A stretch of 64,000 bases of DNA from Candidatus Saccharimonadales bacterium (GCA_038216175.1 JBBQQG010000003.1:450-64449), one strand, 5' to 3'. Counted from the stretch's first letter, positions 40,020-62,499 are shown. A program made the numbers and translations. Notes: a model not told the origin generated them from the letters alone.

Positions 40020-42674
40020 ATGAACCAAGTTACGCCTAAAAAACTTGCAATTATCGACGGCAAGTCGGTATTTTACCGGGGATATTATGCAATGCCGAAT
40101 CTGAGCACAAAAGATGGTGTGCCGACCGGCGGCGTGTTTGGTTTCGCAACTATGGCCTTAGAAGTATTAAAAAAACTTAAACCGGATTATGTCTGTGTAG
40201 CCTGGGACAAGCCTAAAACAAATATCAGAAAACGACTAGAACTGTATCCTCTATATAAGGCTGGACGACGCAAGCCACCTCCGGATTTTTACGTCCAAAT
40301 TCCAATATTGCATGAACTTCTTGGTGCTTTCGGTTGGCCTTTATACGAGTTAGATGATTATGAAGCCGACGATATTATGGGTGCGCTAGCGGTACAGGCG
40401 ACTGAAAAAGGGATAGATACCCAGTTAATAACATCAGATTTAGACATGCTTCAATTAGTAAATAAAAACGTACATGTCTACGCACTCAAAAAAGGACTCA
40501 GCAATATTGAATTATTCCGACCGGAAACGTTCATTCTAAAATATGGTATTACTCCAGATCAATTCTTAGATCTAAAGTCGCTAAAAGGCGACAGTTCAGA
40601 CAATATACCTGGTGTACCAGGGATTGGTGAAAAGGGCGCAATTGACCTTCTAAAACAATTCAAAACTTTGGACGGAGTTTATGAAAACTTGGATTTAATA
40701 AAAGATAGTCTTCGGCAGAAACTTGAGAAAGGGAAAGAATCAGCCGAACTAAGCAAGAAATTAGCTGCAATTTGGACCGACGCACCGATCAAGCTCAATT
40801 TAGAAGAAGTAGACGGCAGCAAATGCCAGCCTGAAAAAGTAAGGGATGTACTCCAGAAGTTAGAATTTAGAAGTTTGGTCCGGCAGCTGCCTGATGTGAT
40901 GAGAGTACCTAAGCATACAGATGATATCTCAAGTGCTATGTATGAGCATGAAACTGATAAAAAAAGTACTTTAATTAGCACAGCCAAGCAATTAAAAGAT
41001 ATAGATATGTCGGAGTCTAGCCATTTATTTGTTCATAGCCGGAGTGCTGGAAAGCACGGCAAAGACCCGCAGTATTTTATTATTAGTGACGGAAAGATTT
41101 TTTATGTTCTCGACCTTAAAGTTTTACCAAGAGATCAAACAAAAAGTTTACTCGAAAAACTGCTATTTAATAAAAAATTAATCGGCTACGACGTTAAGTC
41201 AACTATTAAGATGGGTTATAATCTTGGATTAAAACTAGAAAATGTTGGACATGATATTTTAATTGGTGCCTTTCTTCTTAATAGTTTGAGAAGAGAACAA
41301 ACTCTTACTGAACTGGCATTTTCTGATCTGGGCTATGATGGCTCAAATGTAGAAGAGCTAACTAGTGACGAGTTTATTTCAAGAGCACCGGAGATAATTT
41401 CAATTATCCAAGCTTTGTATTTAAAACAAGACGAAGATTTGCAGACTATGCCGAAACTTGCCAAATTAGCTGAAGAAATTGAATGGCCAGTTATTCCAGT
41501 TCTTGCCAGTATGGAATATGAAGGTATCCGCCTTGATACAGGATATTTAGAAATTATGGGCGAACAACTAACAGATCAGATTAGCGATATAGAGCAACAG
41601 ATTTATGGCCATGCCGACCAAGAATTTAATATCAGTAGTCCAGCTCAGCTTGCCGATATTTTATTCAATCATTTAAAGCTTCCGACTGCGTTTATTAAAA
41701 AAGGTAAAACCGGATTTTCTACAGCCGCTAGTGAACTTGATAAACTTCGTGAGTCCCATCCGATAATAAACTTAATTACACTTTATAGGGAATACACAAA
41801 ACTTAAAAATACTTATGTCGATACATTGCCAACGATGGTAGATGACCGATCGAGAGTCCATACTACGTATAACTTAACAATAGCTCAGACTGGCAGGCTC
41901 AGCAGCACAGATCCTAACTTGCAGAATATCCCGGTTAGAACAGAATTAGGCAAACAAATACGAACTGCATTCGTAGCATCGCCAGGCAAAGTTCTAGTAA
42001 GTGCAGATTACAGTCAATTTGAGCTTAGGCTTGCAGCATATTTAGCGGTTGATGAAGAACTAATGGAAATGTTTAATGGAGGTGCCGATGTCCATACTAT
42101 GACGGCGGCCCAGGTTTATGGTCGAGATCCGGACGAAGTGACTAAACAGATGCGACGAGATGCTAAGGTTATTAATTTTGGTGTACTTTATGGTATGAGT
42201 CCACATGGTTTAAGCGTTGCAACTGGTATGACCCAGAATGCCGCTAAAACGTTTATTGATAAATATTTTGAGCTTCGCAAACCGTTGCTTGAATATATGA
42301 ATGGACTACGCGAGAAAGCCAGGAATGACGGCTACGTTGAAACTTTATTTGGTCGTCGCAGACCGACGCCCGATATTCACTCCAGCAATTTTGTCGTGCG
42401 TTCGGCAGCCGAAAGAGCTGCAATTAATATGCCGATTCAGGGCACCGAAGCCGATTTGATGAAGATGGCTATGATAGCTGTTCAGTCCGAGTTAAAAGCT
42501 AGGCAAGACTGCAAACTACTTCTCCAAATTCATGATTCTTTAATCATTGAATGCCCAGAAGAAAAAGCTAGCGAGATCGAGGAATTATTAAAAAATATAA
42601 TGGAAAATATTTACAAGTTGCCAGTGAGATTAGACGTAGATGTAACCAAAGGTAGAAACTGGGGTGAATTATAG
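40020..42674 (+). CDS. polA: DNA polymerase I
   Basis: 5'-3' exonuclease YEADD and GDSSDNIPG; polymerase TGRLSS.PNLQNIP, DYSQFELR, QIHD. Confidence 0.97.
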   Translation: MNQVTPKKLAIIDGKSVFYRGYYAMPNLSTKDGVPTGGVFGFATMALEVLKKLKPDYVCVAWDKPKTNIRKRLELYPLYKAGRRKPPPDFYVQIPILHELLGAFGWPLYELDDYEADDIMGALAVQATEKGIDTQLITSDLDMLQLVNKNVHVYALKKGLSNIELFRPETFILKYGITPDQFLDLKSLKGDSSDNIPGVPGIGEKGAIDLLKQFKTLDGVYENLDLIKDSLRQKLEKGKESAELSKKLAAIWTDAPIKLNLEEVDGSKCQPEKVRDVLQKLEFRSLVRQLPDVMRVPKHTDDISSAMYEHETDKKSTLISTAKQLKDIDMSESSHLFVHSRSAGKHGKDPQYFIISDGKIFYVLDLKVLPRDQTKSLLEKLLFNKKLIGYDVKSTIKMGYNLGLKLENVGHDILIGAFLLNSLRREQTLTELAFSDLGYDGSNVEELTSDEFISRAPEIISIIQALYLKQDEDLQTMPKLAKLAEEIEWPVIPVLASMEYEGIRLDTGYLEIMGEQLTDQISDIEQQIYGHADQEFNISSPAQLADILFNHLKLPTAFIKKGKTGFSTAASELDKLRESHPIINLITLYREYTKLKNTYVDTLPTMVDDRSRVHTTYNLTIAQTGRLSSTDPNLQNIPVRTELGKQIRTAFVASPGKVLVSADYSQFELRLAAYLAVDEELMEMFNGGADVHTMTAAQVYGRDPDEVTKQMRRDAKVINFGVLYGMSPHGLSVATGMTQNAAKTFIDKYFELRKPLLEYMNGLREKARNDGYVETLFGRRRPTPDIHSSNFVVRSAAERAAINMPIQGTEADLMKMAMIAVQSELKARQDCKLLLQIHDSLIIECPEEKASEIEELLKNIMENIYKLPVRLDVDVTKGRNWGEL

Positions 42675-42923
42675 CTAATTCGCTATTGCCATTGCCTCAG
42701 TCCTAGCTTTTCTAATAGCTAGTTTTTCATTTCTTTGATCAATAGTTTGGTCTAGCTTTCTTAGATTTTCAAAAAGAGTATCACGGTCTTTTTGAGCCTT
42801 ATCGTCTAAGCCCTCAATATTTTCTATATCCCAATGTTCAAGTATTGGATCAACCACTTTTTCTTTAAATATTCCAAGGCTGTAAATACCTTTCAATGCA
42901 ATACGGGCACTATGGCGGTCATA
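42675..42923 (-). pseudogene. C-terminal fragment resembling acyl-ACP desaturase (DesA-like)
   Basis: YDRHSARIALKGIYSLGIFKEKVVDPILEHWDIENIEGLDDKAQKDRDTL resembles recalled DesA C-terminus (IA..G.Y.L......V..P.L..W); no ATG, upstream in-frame TAA. Confidence 0.5.
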
Positions 42924-42981
42924 TAATCTCCGTTACAATATAATTATAGCTGTTAAATCGTCATTCTACTAGTAGTCTTAA

Positions 42982-43008
42982 CGAGACTATACCCTAACGC
43001 CATGTAAA
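42982..43008 (+). repeat. Left terminal inverted repeat
   Basis: CGAGACTATACCCTAACGCCATGTAAA. Confidence 0.85.
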
Positions 43009-43261
43009 TGGAATGCTAATCATTATTGCTTCTTCGCCCTACTCCCCTAGGGCAATATTACTCATGGTTTACCGAATAAGTTGTGGAATAATTCGTGGTA
43101 CCTACCCTTACAAGTAATACGGGTAGGAGGGTTTGGCAAATGAAAGTAATAACTAGCAGACAAAAAAGAAAACGAAGAATAATAAACCTTAAGACACTAA
43201 AGAAAACTAATCATGAAAACTAAATCCAAAAGAACTAACTAACCTACATAACTATCTATCA

Positions 43262-44122
43262 ATGAAACTACCTAAGCTAACGAAGAAACAACAAGAAATA
43301 CTAAAGCTCCTATATAGCTATAGATTCTTAAACAGAATACAGATACAAGCTTTAATGGGTCACAAGGACTATAAAACTATTAACCTATGGCTTAGAGATT
43401 TAAGACAAAAACAGTACACTGAGTGGATCTACTCAACACACTATGCTGAGCGGACTAAACCAGCAGTCTACTACTTAGGCATCAATGGTATTCGGTATCT
43501 TAAAACGCTAAATAGAGATGGCCATGATGATGAAAAAGACAGTCCCACTTATCCCTTAGAAGAACTTCGTAAACGCTACCGCGAGTCGTCACGGAGCAAA
43601 ACCTACATTGATCGCTGCCTATTGATGGCAGATTGTTGCATCACGCTAAAACGTGAGTCTACTGAGAATGAACCTTATTACTATGAAACTGAAGCTTACA
43701 TGCGAGCTGGTGGTTACTACCAGTTCTTGGTAGACAGTGAGCTAGTCCAACCTGATTTATGCTTCTCAGAAGATACCTATGATGCCAAGACCAAAGAAAC
43801 TAAAACCGTAAAGTGTTATCTGTTGGAGGTATTTGACGCTACTTTACCAAGATACAGGATCAAAAAACGGCTCAATAACTATGTGGAGTATCTAGATAGT
43901 AGTGACTGGGTAGATGAAACTGACAATGATGACTTACCGACTATCTTATTAGTCTGTCCAAGAACTAGTGATTTAATCTACGCAAAGCGAAGAACTAGAG
44001 GGCTTATAGCTGACACATGGGAATACGACGATGAAGGAAGAGAGAATATACATATACAGTTTGCGACCGTAGATGAATTAAAGAAGCATGGAGTTTTAGG
44101 AGAGGTATGGGAGGAGGCGTAG
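43262..44122 (+). CDS. Replication-relaxation (Replic_Relax-like) family protein
   Basis: wHTH start IL.LLYSYRFLNRIQIQ..WLRDL, VYYLGINGI, then QPDL..YLLEV..RL..Y nuclease-like core. Confidence 0.75.
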   Translation: MKLPKLTKKQQEILKLLYSYRFLNRIQIQALMGHKDYKTINLWLRDLRQKQYTEWIYSTHYAERTKPAVYYLGINGIRYLKTLNRDGHDDEKDSPTYPLEELRKRYRESSRSKTYIDRCLLMADCCITLKRESTENEPYYYETEAYMRAGGYYQFLVDSELVQPDLCFSEDTYDAKTKETKTVKCYLLEVFDATLPRYRIKKRLNNYVEYLDSSDWVDETDNDDLPTILLVCPRTSDLIYAKRRTRGLIADTWEYDDEGRENIHIQFATVDELKKHGVLGEVWEEA

Positions 44123-44188
44123 GACACCATCTAACTCGAGCCTAGTGAAACGAGCGCTGATAACTACATGCGAATAGCTATGTAACTT

Positions 44189-44944
44189 CTATTTCGATAA
44201 CTGGCTTTTGAAGTACTCCGTAGTTGAGGAGAACAACTTTTCAGCAGCGCCATCTTCCGTAAATGGATGGCTAGAGTCTGGGATTATGATCTGCGATGTG
44301 TCGGCATCAATGCTGTCTACATAGTTTTTGCCATATCGCTGTTGTTCTTTGCTCCAGCTAGCATTTAAGACACAGGTATTGATCTTAAACTTTGCAGCTG
44401 TCTCTTGGCTTTTGGGATAATCATTATCAAACACAGTCTTTGCATATACATAACCAGAGCCTAGCCCTGATACATAGGCGTTTAAATCTTTAACGAGTGT
44501 AAAATCCTCTGCTAAGTTCTTTTTATTCTGTGGCTCGTCATACCCGTCAGTATGAGTTGGATCCCATAGGGCAGCAGCATTAAATGATTGCTGTTTTGAA
44601 TAGACGGTAGCCATACCACTATAGCTGTGGCCAGCTACACCAATCCATTTTGTACCTTTATCTTTAGCAAAAGCTACGACATCATCAATATCAGCAGCGT
44701 GTGTCATCACATCACTATCTGTTATGTTTCGTGACTTCTCCCCACCACCGTACATACTAAGTCTTAGGGTCGAAAAACCTTCTTTTTCAAAATACCTAGC
44801 CGCATTGTACAAGAGCATTTCATGCATCCAGCCACCATAGCCATGGCACAGAACGATCAGGGGATGCTCATAGTCTCCCCTTAGCGTGCCATACATGAAT
44901 AGATTGCTAGCCGAAAGCGGTATCTTGACTTCTTTTTCTTTCAT
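44189..44944 (-). CDS. Alpha/beta hydrolase
   Basis: LCHGYGG, GHSYSG nucleophile elbow, SSHPF. Confidence 0.85.
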   Translation of the reverse strand: MKEKEVKIPLSASNLFMYGTLRGDYEHPLIVLCHGYGGWMHEMLLYNAARYFEKEGFSTLRLSMYGGGEKSRNITDSDVMTHAADIDDVVAFAKDKGTKWIGVAGHSYSGMATVYSKQQSFNAAALWDPTHTDGYDEPQNKKNLAEDFTLVKDLNAYVSGLGSGYVYAKTVFDNDYPKSQETAAKFKINTCVLNASWSKEQQRYGKNYVDSIDADTSQIIIPDSSHPFTEDGAAEKLFSSTTEYFKSQLSK

Positions 44945-44968
44945 TCCCTAATGATAGCAAAACTAATC

Positions 44969-44995
44969 AAAAAAGACCTCCTTTTACAGAGGTCT
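44969..44995 (-). terminator. Intrinsic terminator downstream of peptidase E gene
   Basis: AGACCTC/GAGGTCT stem followed on the minus strand by a T run. Confidence 0.55.
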
Positions 44996-45127
44996 AAGCA
45001 TAAGCTGTTTGCTAACTGAGCTAGCGTCGAAATGGAACCAAATAAAACGAGAACTTATAGCAATGTGGGAGATTGTCAATGACGTGCGGAAAGAAACTAC
45101 TGTTAGGCTTTAGGTGGCAGGAGTTAA

Positions 45128-45763
45128 TCAGGCTGGCTGTTTGTTGTCAAAAATTAAAACTTCAGCATCTGAAATAGCTTTATACTTAATGCCATGATCC
45201 TCACAGTATTCAATTCCGCGATCAATCGCAGCACTTTCTGGATGGTCAGAATGCCAGTGAGGCATAAAAGCAAAATCAACCAGACCCAAGCCCTCCCATA
45301 TAACTTCATCAAGTTCTTCATAAGGAGTGATTGTGGCATCACCTACCACTTGATATGGCTTTAAAGAGGGCGCCAATACACAACCAGCCGCGCTATAACC
45401 AGAATATAGAAAGCTAGGATCAGAATTGAGATTAATGAGTGTTTCGTCTAAACCACTTAGCTTCATTGCTTGGCGTAGGACAAACACATTTCCACCCATA
45501 ACAAATACCGAACCTTTAGCTTCTATGACTGCTTTCAACTTATTTTTATTACCAAAGTAATCTTTTAGATCTACGACTTCTGCGTTCAAGCCGATCTCTC
45601 CTAAACGCATAACCTTGTTTTCTAGGCTTTCTGCGGTGCGTTGGCTGTCTGCTCCTCTAAAGTCCAAGGCATTAGGGATGATTGCAATTTCATCAGTGGG
45701 AGCAAGCTCTTTTAGCTGGTTCTTCTGGTTACCAAATTTAAATGATGATAGATAAAACTTCAT
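45128..45763 (-). CDS. Peptidase S51 (peptidase E) family
   Basis: IIPNALD, MGGNVFVLR, GYSAAG, GLGLV, MPHW. Confidence 0.85.
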   Translation of the reverse strand: MKFYLSSFKFGNQKNQLKELAPTDEIAIIPNALDFRGADSQRTAESLENKVMRLGEIGLNAEVVDLKDYFGNKNKLKAVIEAKGSVFVMGGNVFVLRQAMKLSGLDETLINLNSDPSFLYSGYSAAGCVLAPSLKPYQVVGDATITPYEELDEVIWEGLGLVDFAFMPHWHSDHPESAAIDRGIEYCEDHGIKYKAISDAEVLIFDNKQPA

Positions 45764-45787
45764 GGTTACATCATACCAAAAGCAAAT

Positions 45788-46291
45788 TTAACTGACTGGT
45801 ACGGCTGGTCTATAAGCGTCGCTTAGGGCGGCCGTGTGAACTGTTAGACTTGTAGTATCCGCTCTCTCGGCAGGAATTGGCAGGCCTAAAGTTTCGGCTC
45901 TCTCTGTTAGAGTATCGTATAGCTGTTCATTCATGCCATGACGCAAGTCTATCCACTTTTTAAAACCAAAGGGATGTATTTGGAAATTATGAGGAGCATT
46001 GTCACCAATCGCTATAGGATAAGTTGGTTCATAGACTACAGCAAGTTGAGGTACTTTACTGATTTCGTCTGAACGGTAGCCTCGCATCGGTTTAGGGGCA
46101 GCCAGCAAAACTACCCTTTCTGTAACGGGTTCGGTTACTGGAGGTAATTTAGACCACATAGCATGAACTATTCTTGCCGCACGGTTTTTGCGAGCTTCAT
46201 CAACAAGACCATCTATATACTCAGCATCAAACATACTATGAGCATATACTTCAGGCGTAAATCTTTCATAACCTTTGCTTGTGCTTGTCAT
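45788..46291 (-). CDS. Hypothetical protein (transposon passenger)
   Basis: ORF with ATG start MTSTSK. Confidence 0.6.
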   Translation of the reverse strand: MTSTSKGYERFTPEVYAHSMFDAEYIDGLVDEARKNRAARIVHAMWSKLPPVTEPVTERVVLLAAPKPMRGYRSDEISKVPQLAVVYEPTYPIAIGDNAPHNFQIHPFGFKKWIDLRHGMNEQLYDTLTERAETLGLPIPAERADTTSLTVHTAALSDAYRPAVPVS

Positions 46292-46453
46292 AAAGTATAT
46301 ATTAACATAATCGTAATAAATAATCAATAGAACTACAGGAGTTTCTGTATCGCACTATAATTGCTACATGACAGTAATTAACATTGGCAATGACTCTTTG
46401 GTAGCGAAGGCAGTGCTCGAACTAATTCTTAGTCACAATGCTAAACTAAACAC

Positions 46454-46669
46454 ATGACTCAATCTAAGAAAAAGCCCTTAACCGACGAACAGCGCCAAGT
46501 CTTTGTAGATAACTTGCCACCAGATCAAGTTAATCCTGATGCCAAAGAAACCTTTGAAGAGGCTATTGAACTCGCCGCGAAGCAGAAGCAATCAAAACCG
46601 GAAACACTGGCTGCTGACGATGGTTATAACGATACACAAACTCATTCACATAAGACTGAAGATACTTAG
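46454..46669 (+). CDS. Small acidic protein convergent with and overlapping the transposase 3' end
   Basis: 71-aa ORF with ATG and natural composition; 107-bp overlap. Confidence 0.5.
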   Translation: MTQSKKKPLTDEQRQVFVDNLPPDQVNPDAKETFEEAIELAAKQKQSKPETLAADDGYNDTQTHSHKTEDT

Positions 46670-47417
46670 GGCTAACACAGTGATACGTTCCATCAATAGA
46701 GCGCTTTAACTGTCCCCAAAATCCTTCAATAGTGTTGGTATGAACCACACCTCGGCCATATTCACCAATACTGTGATTAATGCTGTCGTGCACATAGCCC
46801 AGTCGTTTAAGGGTACTGTAGACTCTGGCTTGGTCACTATAGACAGTTGTACCAACAGCTACACTATTTCTCAGCCTTGGGAGTAAAACTCTAGAGCCAG
46901 CGCTTTTAACATGAGCGGCTTTAACTTTACCGCCTCGCTCCACCATACCAAAGACAATCGCTTTATCCTGAAATGTAATGTCTTTACCTCGTTTATAGCC
47001 ACCAATATATGTTTCATCAGTTTCAATAACACCAGTTAGAGCATCAGTGCCTTGTTGCATTAGCTCTCGGACTTGCTTAGCAATCCGCCAAGCACACTTA
47101 TATGTCACCCCTAGATGTCTTTCTACTTCTTTAGCTGAGACACCATTTTTAGCCACCGAGAAGAGGTATATGATATAAAACCAACTACGCAGTGAAGTAG
47201 CTGATTTATGAAAGATAGTCCCAGACAATGGGTATATCTGATTACCGCAATCCTTACACTCAAAGCACTTCCGGCCACGCACCCTGTAATAGCTTGGGTT
47301 TACTATTCCACACTTTGGACAAGCCGGTATAGTGCCATAGGACTGCTCAAACATATAATCCAGACAACTATTGTCATCCGGGAACGTTTCATTAAAGGTT
47401 TTTATTGTGTATCTCAT
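46563..47417 (-). CDS. IS1595-family DDE transposase
   Basis: Zn ribbon CPKCG..CKDCG, GTIFHKS, ETDETYIGG, YSD, HTNTIEGFW, YVNEFVYRYNHR. Confidence 0.95.
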   Translation of the reverse strand: MRYTIKTFNETFPDDNSCLDYMFEQSYGTIPACPKCGIVNPSYYRVRGRKCFECKDCGNQIYPLSGTIFHKSATSLRSWFYIIYLFSVAKNGVSAKEVERHLGVTYKCAWRIAKQVRELMQQGTDALTGVIETDETYIGGYKRGKDITFQDKAIVFGMVERGGKVKAAHVKSAGSRVLLPRLRNSVAVGTTVYSDQARVYSTLKRLGYVHDSINHSIGEYGRGVVHTNTIEGFWGQLKRSIDGTYHCVSPKYLQSYVNEFVYRYNHRQQPVFPVLIASASRRVQ

Positions 47418-47439
47418 CTGTTTGTAGTGTACACCACTG

Positions 47440-47466
47440 TTTACATGCTGTCAAGGGATAGTCTCG
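47440..47466 (-). repeat. Right terminal inverted repeat
   Basis: Reverse complement CGAGACTATCCCTTGACAGCATGTAAA. Confidence 0.85.
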
Positions 47467-47515
47467 AGTCTTAAGTATTGTAAAACATGCAATAATATGT
47501 TACTATACGTAAAGT

Positions 47516-48076
47516 ATGAAATACTTACTGGGAGTCGCGGCGGTAGTAGTAATTGCGGTACTTGCAATTATCTTTATTTCTTCACCCAAAAAATCTGCAA
47601 ATAATGCAAAAACATCTTCCTCAGCAATTAAATTAACTGATTACATACAAAAAAACAGCCAGGTATCTTTTACTACTCAGGGAAGAATAGTCGGTGATGA
47701 CCAGTATCGTGAACTAAAAATAACAGTCTCACCAAATGAACGAGTAATCGAAGTGCTAGACGGATATAATGAAACTACTGACAGAAATTTAAGTTACGCA
47801 AATAACCGGGCAGCTTATGATGTATTTATTCACTCAATCGACAACGCCGGTTATTTAACAAAACGAAGTACCAGCTTAACTAGTGAAAAAGGTGTCTGCG
47901 CACTAGGGAATCGATACATCTTTGATCTTTCCAGTGACAGTAAACAAATAGTTCGAAGATGGTCAACAAACTGCGGTGGTCAGGGAAGTTTTGGTGGTAG
48001 TTCGTCTACTATTCGTGAACTGTTTCAGGCACAGATAACTGATTATAATAATTTTATAAGTGGCGTGAGCCTTTAA
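47516..48076 (+). CDS. Exported hypothetical protein
   Basis: N-terminal hydrophobic anchor, paired Cys (GVCALG, WSTNCG). Confidence 0.7.
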   Translation: MKYLLGVAAVVVIAVLAIIFISSPKKSANNAKTSSSAIKLTDYIQKNSQVSFTTQGRIVGDDQYRELKITVSPNERVIEVLDGYNETTDRNLSYANNRAAYDVFIHSIDNAGYLTKRSTSLTSEKGVCALGNRYIFDLSSDSKQIVRRWSTNCGGQGSFGGSSSTIRELFQAQITDYNNFISGVSL

Positions 48077-57596: not shown

Positions 57597-59690
57597 ATGG
57601 ATAATAATAAACCAAAATCAGGACCAGCTAGACCTAATAACAGGCCGCCAAAACCTAATAATAATCAGCCTAATGGTAATGTGAATTCCCGTGGACCGAG
57701 TGCTAGCCGCGGAGCTGCAATTAGAGCACAGAAAAGAACCCAAGACGACGCTTTTAGAATCGCAAACCAGTATTTAGATGCTTCAGCTCCCCAATCTGAT
57801 GGCCAGCCCAGAGCAAATTTTATAGATGATAGTCCTAGACTTAAGATTATCGGACTTGGCGGTATGGACGGCGCTGGATCAAAAAACATGATATTGGTCG
57901 AATATTTAAACGATGCAATTATTATGGATTGTGGAAATGATTTAGGTGTCGATCTTCCTGGAATAAATTACGGTATTGCTGATACTGCATATATTGAAAC
58001 TATCAAACATAAGCTACGTGGATATATTATTACTCATGGACACCTTGATCATATTGGTGGTCTGCCACATATAGTGCCGAAAATACCGGCTCCGATATAT
58101 GGTAGTAAATTTAGCATAGGTAGAGTCGAAGAAATTTTTGATAATTTTGGACTACCTATGCCTGAAGGTTTTGAACTTCAAACAGTAGTAATGAATGAAA
58201 ATACTCATGAGCGGCTAAAAGTCGGATCTTTTTTCGTTGAGCTTGTCAGAATTACACACTCGATTCCAGGAAGTACCTGTATTGTGCTTGATACACCAGT
58301 TGGACGAATTATTAACAGTGGTGATTTTAGGCTTGATCCAAATCCACTTGATCATGAAAGAACTGATGTCGAGAGGCTAACAGAACTAGGTAATGAAGGG
58401 GTACTAGCATTATTAAGCGAGAGTACGACAATTGAAAGACCCGGTAGAACTCCAAGTGAAAGTACAATCGAACAAAGTTTCGTAGATATTATCGATCAGG
58501 CACCGGGAAGAATTTTCGTCGGTTTGTTCTCGACAAATATGAACCGGGTTCAGATGATAATAAATGCTTCTGTCCATCATGGTAGAAAAATTGCGATGGA
58601 TGGAAGAAGTATGGTTAGCACGCTTGAAATGGCTGTTCGACATGGCTTTATGAAAGTACCTAAAGGAACATTTGTTCCAATTGCTTCAGCCGCTACAATG
58701 AAAGACCACGAATTGGTTGTTGTATGTACTGGATCTCAGGGAGAGCCAAGCTCAGCTTTGCAAAGAATGGCGAACGGGGAGCATAGACACATTAAACTAA
58801 AAGAACAAGATACTGTGATTCTTAGCTCTACACCAATACCTGAGTCAGGAAACGACAAATTAGTCGGTGACATGGTAGACAACCTTGTTAAGCGGGGAGT
58901 ACACGTCTTTGAGCATCGTAATCATGAAATTGACGGTATCGGTCCGCTTCACGTATCAGGCCATGCATCAAGAGATGAATACGCCGACATGATTAATATG
59001 ACAAAACCAAAGTTTTTTGTGCCGATATATGGACCATTTCGCTCAAAAGCCCGGCATATTGATCTGGCAGTAGAACAGGGAATACCAAGAGTTAATACTA
59101 TGAATGCTGATAATGGTGACGTGATCGCCCTAACTTCGGATAAGATGGAAATCATCGGAAAAATACCTCATGGAACAGTGTTAGTCGATCAAACTGGTGC
59201 AATTGTAAGCAATGTAGTAATTAAGGATAGGTTAATGCTGGCAGAAGAAGGACTTGTTGCAGTTGTGCTTACTGTCGATAAAAAAACTGGAATGCTTCTG
59301 ACGAGCCCCGATATAATAACCAGAGGGTTTATCTATATTAGAGATTCCGAAGAGCTTATGAATGCCTTTAGAACCGAACTTAGACGAGCAGTCGGCCAGA
59401 GATTTAAACGTATCGAATTAGATCGATTTAAAGCCGAACTAAAAGATCATATGACACACTTTTTATTTGAACAAACAGGGCGAAGTCCAATCGTTATACC
59501 AGTTGTAAATATAATCGGTGGCAGCAAGACTGCTGGAGATAAACAACTTAACCGATCAAATGGTAGACCTCAGGGGAATGTCAACGAGACTCCCGAAGAA
59601 CCGACACTAGAGCAAATGGCTGTTGATCAGCAGCGACATTTCCAGGAACTTCGCGCTAAACTACTTGGACAAGATGCTAGGACCGATTAG
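57597..59690 (+). CDS. rnj: Ribonuclease J
   Basis: THGHLDHIGG, THSIP, TGSQGEP, HVSGH. Confidence 0.95.
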   Translation: MDNNKPKSGPARPNNRPPKPNNNQPNGNVNSRGPSASRGAAIRAQKRTQDDAFRIANQYLDASAPQSDGQPRANFIDDSPRLKIIGLGGMDGAGSKNMILVEYLNDAIIMDCGNDLGVDLPGINYGIADTAYIETIKHKLRGYIITHGHLDHIGGLPHIVPKIPAPIYGSKFSIGRVEEIFDNFGLPMPEGFELQTVVMNENTHERLKVGSFFVELVRITHSIPGSTCIVLDTPVGRIINSGDFRLDPNPLDHERTDVERLTELGNEGVLALLSESTTIERPGRTPSESTIEQSFVDIIDQAPGRIFVGLFSTNMNRVQMIINASVHHGRKIAMDGRSMVSTLEMAVRHGFMKVPKGTFVPIASAATMKDHELVVVCTGSQGEPSSALQRMANGEHRHIKLKEQDTVILSSTPIPESGNDKLVGDMVDNLVKRGVHVFEHRNHEIDGIGPLHVSGHASRDEYADMINMTKPKFFVPIYGPFRSKARHIDLAVEQGIPRVNTMNADNGDVIALTSDKMEIIGKIPHGTVLVDQTGAIVSNVVIKDRLMLAEEGLVAVVLTVDKKTGMLLTSPDIITRGFIYIRDSEELMNAFRTELRRAVGQRFKRIELDRFKAELKDHMTHFLFEQTGRSPIVIPVVNIIGGSKTAGDKQLNRSNGRPQGNVNETPEEPTLEQMAVDQQRHFQELRAKLLGQDARTD

Positions 59691-59800
59691 TACAGTTAAA
59701 AAGTCAAAACTGTTTATATCTGATTGACTTTTATCGAAAAGTCCAGTATAAAATAAGGCGTTAATTCAAAAATAAAATTAATTAAAGAAAGAGGTTTATT

Positions 59801-60130
59801 ATGAACCCAAACGAACCATTTAACCCAGGACAACCTTCAGTTGATCCGCCCGCTGCACCGTCAGATCCAAGCATTGAGCAGCCAGTAAGCAGCCCACCAG
59901 CAATGTCATCTGACCCTGTTATTTCACCACAACCAGAACCGGAGCAGGAGCCAGTTGTAAACTCATCTGAAAATTTACCGGTAGTAGATAATGAGCCGGC
60001 TAGTCAAGTTACGCCGCAAGTACAAAGCGAACCACCGCAAGATGACTCTAGCCAAAATGTAGTTACGCCTCCTCAAGTCGAGCAGGATCAAAACTCTACG
60101 GCTCCTGAAGTAAACGATCAAGCTTTATAG
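59801..60130 (+). CDS. Pro/Gln/Ser-rich disordered small protein
   Basis: GAGG RBS; upstream TTGACT..TATAAAAT promoter-like sequence. Confidence 0.65.
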   Translation: MNPNEPFNPGQPSVDPPAAPSDPSIEQPVSSPPAMSSDPVISPQPEPEQEPVVNSSENLPVVDNEPASQVTPQVQSEPPQDDSSQNVVTPPQVEQDQNSTAPEVNDQAL

Positions 60131-60300
60131 TTAAAACGTTAGGCTTATCTGATTTCGCCGTTTTTTAATAGCATGGTCTATTTATTGACAAACGTTGTAA
60201 ATATTGCTATAGTAAATTTATGATTATTTTAAGTTTTATACAAAAAAGCAATTAAGTACTGCAGCAAGAATAAGTTTATTAATAGTATAATAAATAAACC

Positions 60301-62499
60301 ATGGCCAAAAAGAAAAAACGTTCAAAATCAAGAAAGAAAATAGATGTAGTCGACGCTGGAGAGCGTTCTGCTTTTTGGCCTTTATCAGGCGCAATTCTTA
60401 TGATCGTGCTAGCACTTTTTTTACTGCTAGGCGGTTTTGGCACAGGCGGCCCGTTGCCAAAGAAAATGTTTGCCGGTACTTATTGGGCACTAGGGTGGGC
60501 AGCCTATCTGGTTCCGATAGCACTTGTATATTTCGGAATACATAAGTTTAAAAGCGAAGATCGAAAAATTCCACTAGGTAAATTTTTTAGTATGTTAGCG
60601 CTACTTCTGTTAGCAGGTAGCTGGTCCCAAGTAGCTTTTGTAAATAAACAGTCAGACGTTTTCATCGGTGGACATGGTGGCACAATCGGTAAACTAGTCG
60701 GAGGTATAGTTCTTGGAGCGTTAGACAAAATTCCAGCTTCAATATTATTTTTTGTTCTCATGATCCTGGCTTTTTTCTTAACTTTTGGTATTTCGCCTAA
60801 AGTTTTGTTAAAAGTCTTTCAGATATTTAGACGAGAACGACCGGAAGACACAGATCTTGCCGACTTAAAAGCTGGAGCTAGCGAAAATGGCTTTAAACTT
60901 AATGAAGGGGTACCAGTTGAACATTACTCTGAGCGTGATAAAGCAAGGCTTAGTAGTTTTCGAAACAGTGCTCAGAAACTTACAACAGCTGATAATCATG
61001 TTGCACTAACTACCGCTAGTGATCCGGATTGGAAATTTCCAGAAGTAAACTTGCTTGATCAGAAACAGGATAAAGCTGATGCCGGAGACGTCGAAGGGAA
61101 TGCTGAAGCTATCAAAGAAACTTTCGCAAATTTCAATATTGATGTTGAAATGGAGGGTGCAAATATCGGTCCGCGGGTGACACAGTACACGCTTAAACCG
61201 CCGACCGGAGTTAAACTGACTAAAATAACTGCATTAGAAAATAATTTATCATTAGATCTAGCCGCGCACTCTATTCGAATGGAGGCTCCTATACCAGGCA
61301 AGAGACTTGTCGGAATTGAGGTTCCTAACGTCAAGCCGGCAATAGTCAGAATCAGTTCGCTACTTCAAAGCCACGACTGGCAACAACTAACAAACAGTCC
61401 CTTAGGGTTTGTAATAGGGAAGGATATAGCAGGTGCTCCAGTAGTAGCTGACTTAGCAAAGATGCCCCATATTTTAATTGCCGGTCAAACTGGCTCGGGA
61501 AAGTCGATTATGATTAATACCATACTGACAAGCTTGCTTTATCATAATAGTCCGGCTGATTTAAAGTTGATTCTAGTTGATCCGAAACAGGTCGAACTGA
61601 CGCCTTACAACGATATCCCGCATCTATTAACGCCAGTGATACACGAACCTGAAAAATGTATCAGTGCACTTAAATGGGCGGTTGCAGAAATGGAAAGGCG
61701 GCTTCGGGCAATGGCGGAAGTCGGACGTCGAAATATCGCTGAGTATAATAACCTTAAAAAAGAAGAAGGCATGCCGTATATCGTTATTGTAATCGATGAG
61801 CTGGCAGATTTAATGATGATGGCCGCCAGAGATGTAGAGTCGCTGGTCGTAAGGCTGGCTCAAAAAGCTAGGGCGGCAGGTATCCATCTAGTGCTGGCTA
61901 CTCAAAGACCAAGTGTAGACGTAATAACTGGTCTTATTAAAGCAAACGTACCAGCCAGGATTGCATTTACTACAGCCCAGCAAGTAGATTCACGAACAAT
62001 CATAGATCAAATAGGAGCTGAAAAATTACTCGGTTCCGGCGATATGCTGCTACTGACAGCCGATATGCCAAAACCAAAACGTGTCCAAGGCGCATTTATT
62101 GCCGATGCTGAAACACTTAAAGTAAACGATTTCTTAAGAATGCAAAGGCCACCTCAGTACGATGATGAAATTATTAGCCAACCAGTCCAATTAAACGGTC
62201 GGGGCGGGATTGTTGCAGAAATAGACAGCAGCGATGAACCAATTTTCAGAGATGCGGTAAGAGTTGTCGTCGAAGCACATAAAGCAAGCACCAGCTTGCT
62301 TCAGCGAAGACTAAGGATAGGTTACGGTAAAGCTGCCAGACTTATCGAAAGTATGGAAGAACAAGGTATAGTCGGCCCAGCTGACGGCTCGCGACCAAGA
62401 GAAGTATTAGTAAGTTCGGTCGATGCTGTATTCGGTGGCGATAGCCATGAGCCTGATGTCTATGATGATATGCCGGACGAACCTGCAACGGACGAATAG
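60301..62499 (+). CDS. ftsK: DNA translocase FtsK
   Basis: N-terminal TMs, AGQTGSGKS, IDELADLM, ATQRPS, gamma domain LQRRLRIGY. Confidence 0.96.
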   Translation: MAKKKKRSKSRKKIDVVDAGERSAFWPLSGAILMIVLALFLLLGGFGTGGPLPKKMFAGTYWALGWAAYLVPIALVYFGIHKFKSEDRKIPLGKFFSMLALLLLAGSWSQVAFVNKQSDVFIGGHGGTIGKLVGGIVLGALDKIPASILFFVLMILAFFLTFGISPKVLLKVFQIFRRERPEDTDLADLKAGASENGFKLNEGVPVEHYSERDKARLSSFRNSAQKLTTADNHVALTTASDPDWKFPEVNLLDQKQDKADAGDVEGNAEAIKETFANFNIDVEMEGANIGPRVTQYTLKPPTGVKLTKITALENNLSLDLAAHSIRMEAPIPGKRLVGIEVPNVKPAIVRISSLLQSHDWQQLTNSPLGFVIGKDIAGAPVVADLAKMPHILIAGQTGSGKSIMINTILTSLLYHNSPADLKLILVDPKQVELTPYNDIPHLLTPVIHEPEKCISALKWAVAEMERRLRAMAEVGRRNIAEYNNLKKEEGMPYIVIVIDELADLMMMAARDVESLVVRLAQKARAAGIHLVLATQRPSVDVITGLIKANVPARIAFTTAQQVDSRTIIDQIGAEKLLGSGDMLLLTADMPKPKRVQGAFIADAETLKVNDFLRMQRPPQYDDEIISQPVQLNGRGGIVAEIDSSDEPIFRDAVRVVVEAHKASTSLLQRRLRIGYGKAARLIESMEEQGIVGPADGSRPREVLVSSVDAVFGGDSHEPDVYDDMPDEPATDE

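Follow-up and report, generated by a model that had tools for sequence, protein, structure and literature searches.

An IS1595-family cargo transposon of Saccharibacteria with a putative MOBC-like relaxase gene in its conserved core

Introduction

What does a gene of the Replic_Relax family (PF13814) do inside a small chromosomal transposon? The question is raised by a locus in a Saccharimonadales (Saccharibacteria) genome, of which one stretch of 64,000 nucleotides (GCA_038216175.1, JBBQQG010000003.1:450-64449; hereafter the window) was analysed. Between polA and a conserved 186-aa gene, positions 42974-47474 of the window hold a complete 4.5-kb IS1595-family cargo transposon (tIS) with the Replic_Relax gene at the end opposite its transposase. 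An earlier reading of this DNA, made from the sequence alone (the sequence-only reading), had delimited the block and had seen in the gene either an unusual captured fragment from an integrative conjugative element (ICE) or the mark of a transposon that can also replicate or be mobilised. The captured-fragment view is disfavoured, the gene being a conserved core gene present in 16 of 20 related elements; the mobilizable transposon is the reading that we favour, tentatively, over the alternatives weighed below.

Transporter insertion sequences (ISs) of the IS1595 family, as represented in ISfinder, combine a single zinc-ribbon DDE transposase with terminal inverted repeats (TIRs), an 8-bp target-site duplication (TSD) and passenger genes, which occupy the space from the transposase to the far TIR. 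Such passenger-carrying ISs of the IS1595 family were reportedly catalogued by Siguier et al. in 2009; to our knowledge, no subgroup with a conserved relaxase-class gene has been described. A search of the literature, with ISfinder and the supplementary MOBC list of a recent preprint outside its scope, found no description of IS1595 elements that carry a relaxase-class gene or of such transposons in Saccharibacteria.

Ends and Core Genes of the Element

Two 27-nt TIRs, at 42982-43008 and 47440-47466, are complementary at 22 of 27 positions (81%), and an exact 8-bp direct repeat, AGTCTTAA, abuts both on the outside, at 42974-42981 and 47467-47474. As an internal control, all identical 8-mer pairs 0.7-10 kb apart in the window (15,457 exact pairs) were collected and the 27 nt inside each copy scored: the pair that bounds the transposon reaches an inward complementarity of 22/27, and the runners-up, six pairs, reach 16/27. 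The inverted repeats, the exact duplication and the single transposase of the sequence-only reading are thus borne out, in a combination that no other repeat pair of the window matches. The parts of the element on which the argument rests are the following.

42974-42981, no strand: TSD, left copy, AGTCTTAA (exact repeat, pair control)
42982-43008, plus strand: IRd, the transposase-distal TIR, with the family distal signature ..TATACCCTAAC.. that is common to the distal TIRs of 15 relatives
43262-44122, plus strand: Replic_Relax/MOBC-like protein, 286 aa, reading inward from the distal end (PF13814)
46454-46669, plus strand: small open reading frame (ORF), 71 aa, convergent with the transposase gene and sharing 107 nt with its 3' end
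46563-47417, minus strand: IS1595-family DDE transposase, 284 aa, full length (Pfam, NCBIfam, homologue alignment)
47440-47466, minus strand: IRp, the transposase-proximal TIR, with the signature ..TATCCCTTGAC.. (inverted-repeat and family comparison)
47467-47474, no strand: TSD, right copy, AGTCTTAA (exact repeat, pair control)

The transposase matches DDE_Tnp_IS1595 (PF12762, E 2.6e-38) over model positions 2-153 of 153, Zn_ribbon_IS1595 (PF12760, E 2.6e-10) and transpos_IS1595 (NF033547, 188 bits against a cut-off of 75), and its C terminus is intact, because homologues 72-80% identical align to residues 1-284. With a zinc-ribbon DDE transposase, TIRs at both ends and an 8-bp TSD, the element shows three defining features of the IS1595 family, and with one transposase and one TIR pair, without a second IS copy at the other end, it is a unit transposon and not a composite one. 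A pattern search of the window and of the whole genome revealed no inner TIR beside the transposase stop, which the sequence-only reading had considered as a possible closer left boundary; the further copies with other cargo that it had suggested looking for did not emerge from the same search, in which only the two ends of this element were found. A recent insertion is plausible, judging from the perfect TSD. In transposase orientation, the TSD reads TTAAGACT and that of one related element (L061) CTTAAGAC; they have the 7-mer TTAAGAC in common, next to the proximal TIR. The remaining 14 TSDs are without a common sequence, and the TTAAGAC match could reflect chance or a weak target preference.

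A Family of Transposons with Exchangeable Cargo

Of 401 genomes sampled from the order Saccharimonadales, 90 encode a homologue of the transposase (the order-wide tallies given here and below, 90/401, 133/401 and 118, include the unpublished genomes G280, with locus L044, and G042, on which alone no claim is based). Among relatives retrieved with 1.5-kb flanks, most had no TIR directly past the transposase stop; with 10-kb flanks, a clear partner TIR appeared 1.1-6 kb downstream in 15 loci. The partner is always of the distal type, like the left TIR of the window, and the other end of the proximal type. In all 16 elements of this first set, the window's included, an exact 8-bp TSD abuts a TIR pair 2.1-6.9 kb apart, and random right-hand ends give an exact 8-bp repeat in 13 of 3175 trials. 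Since distal TIR and TSD are present in all 16, the 4.5-kb block is one transposable unit and passengers are normal in the family; the sequence-only reading was right both on the IS1595 affiliation and on the block having the nature of a single unit. A second set, from a scan of named metagenome-assembled genomes, adds four delimited elements (L120, L121, L132 and L134), which brings the TIR- and TSD-bounded elements of Saccharimonadales to 20, with lengths of 1.4-6.9 kb.

By ORF clustering, 14 of the 16 first-set elements, and 16 of the 20 once the second set is counted, encode a Replic_Relax homologue. It usually follows the transposase on the same strand, 200-500 bp downstream; in the window, L054, L121 and L134, whose transposases are 52-80% identical, it occupies the distal end and points inward. 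The small ORF of 71 aa, one of two genes that the sequence-only reading had listed as orphans, has homologues in at least 6 of 16 elements (blastp clustering) and is visible in the DNA of L057, L070 and L072; it is a real gene of the clade, because its 36 N-terminal residues, which lie outside the overlap with the transposase gene, are also conserved. The other supposed orphan, at 45788-46327, belongs to no family, as had been stated. When element types are compared, 81-83% identity is confined to the first ~1.9-2.3 kb, made up of transposase, small ORF and Replic_Relax gene, and the rest is unrelated. The core of the family consists of the DDE transposase, the Replic_Relax/MOBC-class protein and, in this clade, the ORF of ~70 aa; everything else is interchangeable cargo. 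By Pfam, the cargo of relatives includes a PfkB kinase, an MBL-fold hydrolase, an HTH-SocA/Panacea antitoxin, a beta-helix protein, a two-component system with a MacB-type ABC transporter, Shedu SduA, ArsR with an MFS transporter, a reverse transcriptase and an MmeI-like restriction-modification enzyme, and toxin-antitoxin genes are among it. These structural and family claims we hold jointly with high confidence.

The locus with the closest transposase (L110, 86% identity) has a proximal TIR and 78% DNA identity to 46464-47464, the small-ORF region included. Over 8 kb downstream, neither a Replic_Relax gene nor a recognisable distal TIR is present, and the element there may be longer or decayed.

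Linkage of the Replic_Relax Gene to the Transposase

A profile (A1) built from 11 Replic_Relax proteins of the elements matches 133 of the 401 genomes of the order; in a set of 1.84 billion representative proteins it finds 1976 clusters at E <= 0.001 and 585 when the threshold is tightened to E <= 1e-30. Among 118 near-full-length transposase matches, the gene follows downstream on the same strand, at no more than 1.5 kb, in at least 53 and lies within 8 kb in at least 62, both figures being lower bounds from coordinates cross-tabulated among the matches listed; the linkage extends to transposases 33-45% identical to that of the window. In a taxon-wide sample of 80 loci across 185,579 species, obtained with the transposase as query, the gene stands beside the transposase in 10 loci, all of them among the 21 labelled Saccharibacteria or Saccharimonadales, and in none of the 53 loci labelled as other taxa (Chloroflexota, Acidobacteriota, Proteobacteria, Peregrinibacteria and others). 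Among the sampled loci, the transposon family is restricted to Saccharibacteria-labelled genomes. A tblastn search of 72,556 plasmids with the Replic_Relax protein gave no match.

Architecture of the Replic_Relax Protein

The window protein passes PF13814 (E 3.2e-9, 37.6 bits against a cut-off of 25.3, model positions 1-180 of 191), a test that the sequence-only reading had proposed and that turned out in its favour, and 10 of 11 aligned element homologues pass as well, with a best E of 2e-14. This Pfam family constitutes the MOBC relaxase class in CONJscan (PMC5357655) and has been placed in the PD-(D/E)XK superfamily, most often as a fusion with a helix-turn-helix (HTH) domain (PMC3424549). 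TraX of pAD1, which consists of a winged helix and a restriction-endonuclease-like catalytic domain, was experimentally shown to be a relaxase, and the description of that work reports that no covalent DNA intermediate was seen (PMC12857230).

In a profile search of PDB sequences, residues ~10-85 of the window protein match only ArsR/MarR winged helices. The AlphaFold 2 model (mean confidence, pLDDT, 70) places an alpha/beta domain after a winged helix, and Foldseek with the whole protein returned only MarR-type winged helices; with the C-terminal domain alone (model pLDDT 66), the best matches were the nickase N.BspD6I (E 0.016, probability 0.97), YaeQ and HamA. In an alignment of 161 members, P164 is present in 153, D165 in 133, D/E189 in 144 and K/R203 in 141, and the window protein itself carries D165 and E189. 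Y70 is F in 5 of the 161, which argues against a catalytic tyrosine. These comparisons and models suggest a protein with an N-terminal winged helix, which is clear, and a C-terminal PD-(D/E)XK-like domain, whose nuclease fold is weakly matched.

The Gene in the Company of Serine Recombinases

Replic_Relax genes are not confined to transposons. Twenty loci with a profile match and no nearby transposase, together with a second copy in the host genome, make up 21 loci with 23 copies, in 14 of which the divergently oriented neighbour is a protein of ~550-750 aa from a single cluster; all five cluster members that were scanned are large serine recombinases (Resolvase, Recombinase and Zn_ribbon_recom domains). 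A coupling-protein cluster is represented in three of the 21 loci, and the one member scanned has TrwB_AAD_bind, TraG-D_C and T4SS-DNA_transf domains; in L106 the order is type IV coupling protein, Replic_Relax, serine recombinase. The family TIR motifs were not convincingly found in any of the 21 loci. In a maximum-likelihood tree of 34 proteins, transposase- and recombinase-linked copies are intermixed, with 10-11 label changes, not fewer than with shuffled labels, and the window's protein is sister to a recombinase-linked copy (L100; support 96/89).

A sequence box, TATA[TA]A[CA]ATA[TA]AG, scored within 260 nt upstream of the gene with at most one change, is present in 14 of 23 and 8 of 11 cases, against 8 of 1944 control windows. 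The strength of inverted repeats upstream of the gene is in most loci not above that of shuffles; since the palindromy of the box is likewise weak and not beyond chance, we claim a sequence box and not a hairpin.

The divergent Replic_Relax/recombinase pairs of L091, L094-L101 and L104-L106 are likely small serine-recombinase integrative and mobilizable elements (IMEs) of Saccharibacteria; in L091, one recombinase is broken into two ORFs. The genes directly downstream of solitary Replic_Relax copies include an ORF with a CdiA_C domain and an HTH-SocA/Panacea protein (L093 7901-8281 and L090 8002-8772, both on the plus strand), cargo kinds like those in the transposons.

Spread of the Elements and the Transfer Machinery at Hand

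Three elements of 5.7-5.8 kb (L065, L066 and L068), from genomes of three taxonomic families (G351, G225 and G092), are 99.3-99.5% identical. They lie at three sites, with unrelated flanks and different TSDs, and carry a Fib_succ_major-domain protein and a reverse transcriptase as cargo. Two elements of 3.2 kb from two further taxonomic families are 96.5% identical. Near-identical elements at different sites imply that whole elements recently moved between distant lineages.

Type IV secretion systems (T4SSs) of the MPF_FATA type are described as widespread in the candidate phyla radiation (CPR), for which the same preprint counts 109 relaxase homologues in 103 genomes, MOBC being the commonest class (58) and few lying near virB4; it doubts a role of these systems in DNA transfer, relaxases being rarely nearby (10.1101/2025.01.22.634366). 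In the host genome studied here, two large ORFs elsewhere have TraG-D_C above its cut-off, and matches to PF02534 and PF12846 were found below cut-off only. A weak match to AAA_10 (PF12846) within the window was considered as a T4SS ATPase and rejected, as it belongs to a housekeeping FtsK.

A Mobilizable Transposon with Its Own Relaxase?

We posit that the element is a mobilizable transposon, an IME that pairs an IS1595 integrase with a MOBC-like relaxase of its own; to the relaxase and mobilization role we assign a probability of roughly 40-50%. An IME brings an integration/excision enzyme of its own, and this is present here, in the form of an intact IS1595 transposase together with TIRs and a TSD. 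The transposase would excise the element, or copy it, as a circle, as is reported for the IS1595-type MTnSag1. The Replic_Relax protein would then bind a cis site next to its own gene and nick it, acting as a MOBC-type relaxase, and the circle would pass to another cell through a T4SS supplied in trans. In the recipient, the transposase would insert the circle and thereby make the 8-bp duplication.

A number of observations weigh against this proposal. The PF13814 match of the window protein is modest, and the structural matches of its C-terminal domain are weak (E 0.016, TMq 0.33, pLDDT 66), though all are to nuclease-fold proteins. The PD aspartate D165 is replaced in 4 of 11 element copies (by N, W, W and P) and in 28 of the 161 members. 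At the stringency used, the upstream box is missing from the window's copy and from its sister L100, and the inverted repeat CCTACCC/GGGTAGG upstream of the window's gene does not exceed chance expectation (4 of 30 shuffles). Neither a coupling protein nor a T4SS gene was found in or beside the window's element, and PF03135 (VirB4) was not found in the host genome, which has a single copy of the element (two TIR copies in 1.36 Mb on 162 contigs). The contigs of two sequencing runs, X1 and X2, contain no joint, empty site or circle junction, assembled contigs being uninformative on excision. Transposition does not require the Replic_Relax gene in cis, as 4 of 20 complete TSD-flanked elements are without it. 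The identity of elements across taxonomic families fits mobilization, but transformation could do likewise; Saccharibacteria carry competence genes, which makes natural transformation an alternative route (10.1101/2025.01.22.634366). The T4SSs of CPR have also been argued to be repurposed for non-conjugative roles.

Part of this would suit a DNA-binding regulator: with its winged helix and a degenerate nuclease-like domain, it would attach to the box ahead of its own gene and control expression of the integrase (transposase or serine recombinase), or serve as a directionality or immunity factor. Its N-terminal domain resembles MarR/ArsR-type winged helices; Steczkiewicz et al. describe the family as a predicted transcriptional regulator, usually HTH-fused (PMC3424549), the conserved box lies directly upstream of the gene, where an autoregulatory operator is expected, the gene adjoins an integrase gene in both contexts, and 4 of 11 element copies have lost the PD aspartate. 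Such a role is nonetheless unlikely, given that P164, D165 and D/E189 are kept in 83-95% of the 161 members, which suggests an active site under selection, that a coupling protein is adjacent in some loci, and that the family is a relaxase class in CONJscan, with TraX of pAD1, of apparently the same build, a shown relaxase (PMC12857230). A replicative role, in which the nick would prime rolling-circle copying of the excised circle and so raise its copy number or stabilise it before reinsertion, with no transfer between cells, we think improbable. It draws on the name of the Pfam family, which refers to plasmid replication as well as relaxation (PMC3424549), on the circular intermediate of MTnSag1 (PMC5704250), and on the association of the gene with two unrelated kinds of integrase that both yield circles; yet the scanned element ORFs include no recognisable helicase, primase or further replication gene, the plasmid search found no match, and replication by itself leaves the 99% identical copies across taxonomic families unexplained.

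The remaining alternatives concern the place of the gene in the element. In Tn7, the PD-(D/E)XK nuclease TnsA cuts the second strand for TnsB, and a TnsA-like accessory nuclease working with the DDE transposase would make transposition cut-and-paste. The PD-(D/E)XK-like fold, the conserved acidic pair and the gene's place immediately downstream of the transposase, as seen in at least 53 of 118 cases, would agree with such a helper. We regard it as very improbable, however: the family is equally paired with large serine recombinases (14 of 23 copies, intermixed on the tree), which need no such nuclease, complete TSD-flanked elements exist without the gene (4 of 20), and the related IS1595 transposases of the 53 loci labelled non-Saccharibacteria have no such neighbour. 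A protein with its own upstream site and two unrelated integrase partners is easier to understand as a transfer (or replication) module than as a helper of DDE chemistry. Hardly to be credited at all is the view of the gene as passive cargo, captured as a fragment of an ICE or plasmid and without a role in the element. In its favour, the gene of the window's element is surrounded by unrelated cargo and placed opposite the transposase, its closest sampled relative is recombinase-linked and DNA homology to the L100 locus begins 180 nt upstream of it; against it stand the 16 of 20 delimited elements that have the gene together with otherwise unrelated cargo, its linkage to transposases of widely different clades, and the recurrence of the inward-reading distal layout in four elements with transposases 52-80% identical.

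The mobilizable transposon that we favour could be one instance of something wider, a portable "relaxase + oriT" cassette (oriT, origin of transfer), formed by the Replic_Relax gene and its upstream box, that renders any integrase-bearing Saccharibacteria element conjugatively mobilizable. If so, these small elements would be the "missing" DNA substrates and relaxases of CPR T4SSs, which would still conjugate, and a main route by which defence and metabolic genes pass between Saccharibacteria lineages. This cassette proposal, judged jointly with what it implies for T4SS substrates and for the movement of defence and metabolic genes, is doubtful.

Relation to Known Mobilizable Elements

MTnSag1 (tISSag10) of Streptococcus agalactiae and tISCpe8 of Clostridium perfringens are IS1595-family mobilizable transposons classed as IMEs (PMC5704250). 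With them the window's element has in common an IS1595-type DDE transposase as the only integration enzyme, TIRs (of ~25 bp there), an 8-bp duplication and passengers; low target specificity is listed as a further likeness, and a circular intermediate is reported for MTnSag1 (PMC5704250). As described there, MTnSag1 and tISCpe8 are 1.7-2.0 kb long, carry a lincosamide-resistance gene only and no relaxase, and, with an oriT inside the cargo gene, rely on the relaxase of Tn916 (PMC5704250). The Saccharibacteria family, unlike them, brings a MOBC-like gene of its own, one more small ORF in the core and 1-5 kb of diverse cargo.

The same relaxase-class Pfam is found next to an integration enzyme in streptococcal IMEs of class 8, which are described as having a VirD4 coupling protein, a MobC (PF13814) relaxase and a serine integrase (PMC5357655, PMC5704250), an architecture that relatives of the L106 type match. 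The window's element differs in having an IS1595 DDE transposase in place of the serine integrase and no coupling protein, and the proteins have no BLAST-level similarity to plasmid-borne ones. TraX of pAD1 and MobC of CloDF13, the studied MOBC relaxases, have the Pfam/CONJscan class and an N-terminal winged helix in common with the window protein, and may also share with it a restriction-endonuclease-like (PD-(D/E)XK) catalytic domain (PMC12857230); the relation is at profile level only (37.6 bits) and the gene here is chromosomal, inside a transposon and not on a plasmid.

The family thus extends the relaxase-less IS1595 mobilizable transposons, MTnSag1 and tISCpe8, to a form with its own MOBC-class gene, in another phylum and as a large family. 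Saccharibacteria and other CPR have tiny genomes, and MOBC-class genes in 133 of 401 Saccharimonadales genomes, many inside minimal transposons or beside serine recombinases, are a testable candidate for the means by which DNA moves among them. The vehicles are compact, with a core of 2-2.3 kb plus cargo that comprises defence systems (Shedu, the MmeI-like enzyme, the reverse transcriptase and toxin-antitoxin genes), transporters and enzymes, and some are near-identical across taxonomic families; for those few Saccharibacteria that can be cultured and transformed, they could be of use as natural genetic tools.

Cargo and Upstream Region of the Window's Element

The other annotated parts of the element are given below.

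43083-43261, plus strand: upstream region of the Replic_Relax gene, homologous to the upstream DNA of other family members; candidate promoter, operator or oriT
44189-44944, minus strand: cargo, probable alpha/beta-fold hydrolase, 251 aa (weak match to Abhydrolase_1)
45128-45763, minus strand: cargo, peptidase family S51 protein, 211 aa (Peptidase_S51, E 5e-14)
45788-46327, minus strand: cargo, 179-aa ORF of no family; the true start is possibly an internal ATG 12 codons in

Two of the cargo genes had been called a hydrolase and peptidase E. The S51 family membership of 45128-45763 stands; the PepE equivalog was rejected (24.7 bits against a cut-off of 156), and the hydrolase assignment depends on a weak Abhydrolase_1 match of 24.2 bits, slightly under the cut-off of 25.8. 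Neither the 179-aa ORF nor the 71-aa ORF at 46454-46669 matched a family in Pfam and NCBIfam scans; for the former, there are weak leads at 0.85-0.87 to the TIR protein domain (not to be confused with the inverted repeats). The cargo of the window's element has no DNA homologue in any fetched element or locus, and an Rfam search of 42500-48000 returned nothing at E <= 0.1.

The upstream region, 67% identical in DNA to L100 from 43083 onward, includes the short inverted repeat CCTACCC (43101-43107)/GGGTAGG (43121-43127) and a ribosome-binding-site-like GGAGGG. A 27-codon ORF at 43141-43224 begins where the gene of the L054 homologue begins. The A-rich stretch 43157-43261 is replaced by 28 other nt in a variant contig of the sample, found in the probable source run and covering 43049-43279, which has 7 differences, the 28 letters in exchange for 43157-43261, and then divergence. 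In the same run, the 32-nt stretch 43047-43078 is at doubled depth; variant contig and doubled depth together suggest a second related copy in the sample. Of the sequencing runs matched (X1, probably the source sample; X2, with 17% of words; and X3), X2 contains small pieces of the flanks and of the element at >=99%.

Host Genome and Insertion Locus

The conserved gene order in relatives is polA, 186-aa gene, HAD-like hydrolase, 79-aa gene and fpg. The relatives are of other genera, and gene order was used to look for the empty site, the intergenic target being not alignable; in searches of 40 relatives with the flanking DNA, nothing matched except the coding part of polA and the beginning of the HAD-like gene, at 64-91% identity. 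An empty site, for which the sequence-only reading had proposed to look, is seen as gene order in 2 of 11 relatives (G003 and G020), in which the 186-aa gene follows polA at a gap of ~110 bp. The transposase and all cargo genes are absent from the polA locus in all 11, so that cargo without the transposon, the contrary arrangement that had been envisaged, does not occur there. The gap ranges from ~110 bp up to 7.7 kb in G006 (loci L074-L084), and such variation, 0.1-7.7 kb, makes the place seem an insertion-tolerant and recurrent site of inserted DNA.

Between polA and the transposon lies a 73-aa ORF (42675-42896, minus strand) that matches the C-terminal part of FA_desaturase_2 (positions 256-316 of 325, E 8e-7) and is not at this locus in the 11 relatives. 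Its missing ~250 N-terminal codons are not found across the element, so the ORF looks like a remnant that predates the insertion. Farther along the window, 57597-62499 holds the housekeeping genes for RNase J (697 aa) and FtsK (732 aa). Elsewhere in the host genome are a second IS1595 transposase, 39% identical, without a Replic_Relax gene (contig C23), and, on contig C1, the second Replic_Relax homologue, without a transposase. The host genome is ~2 times the size of those of ten relatives of the same family (0.6-0.8 Mb), at a completeness of 96.65% and a contamination of 0.39%.

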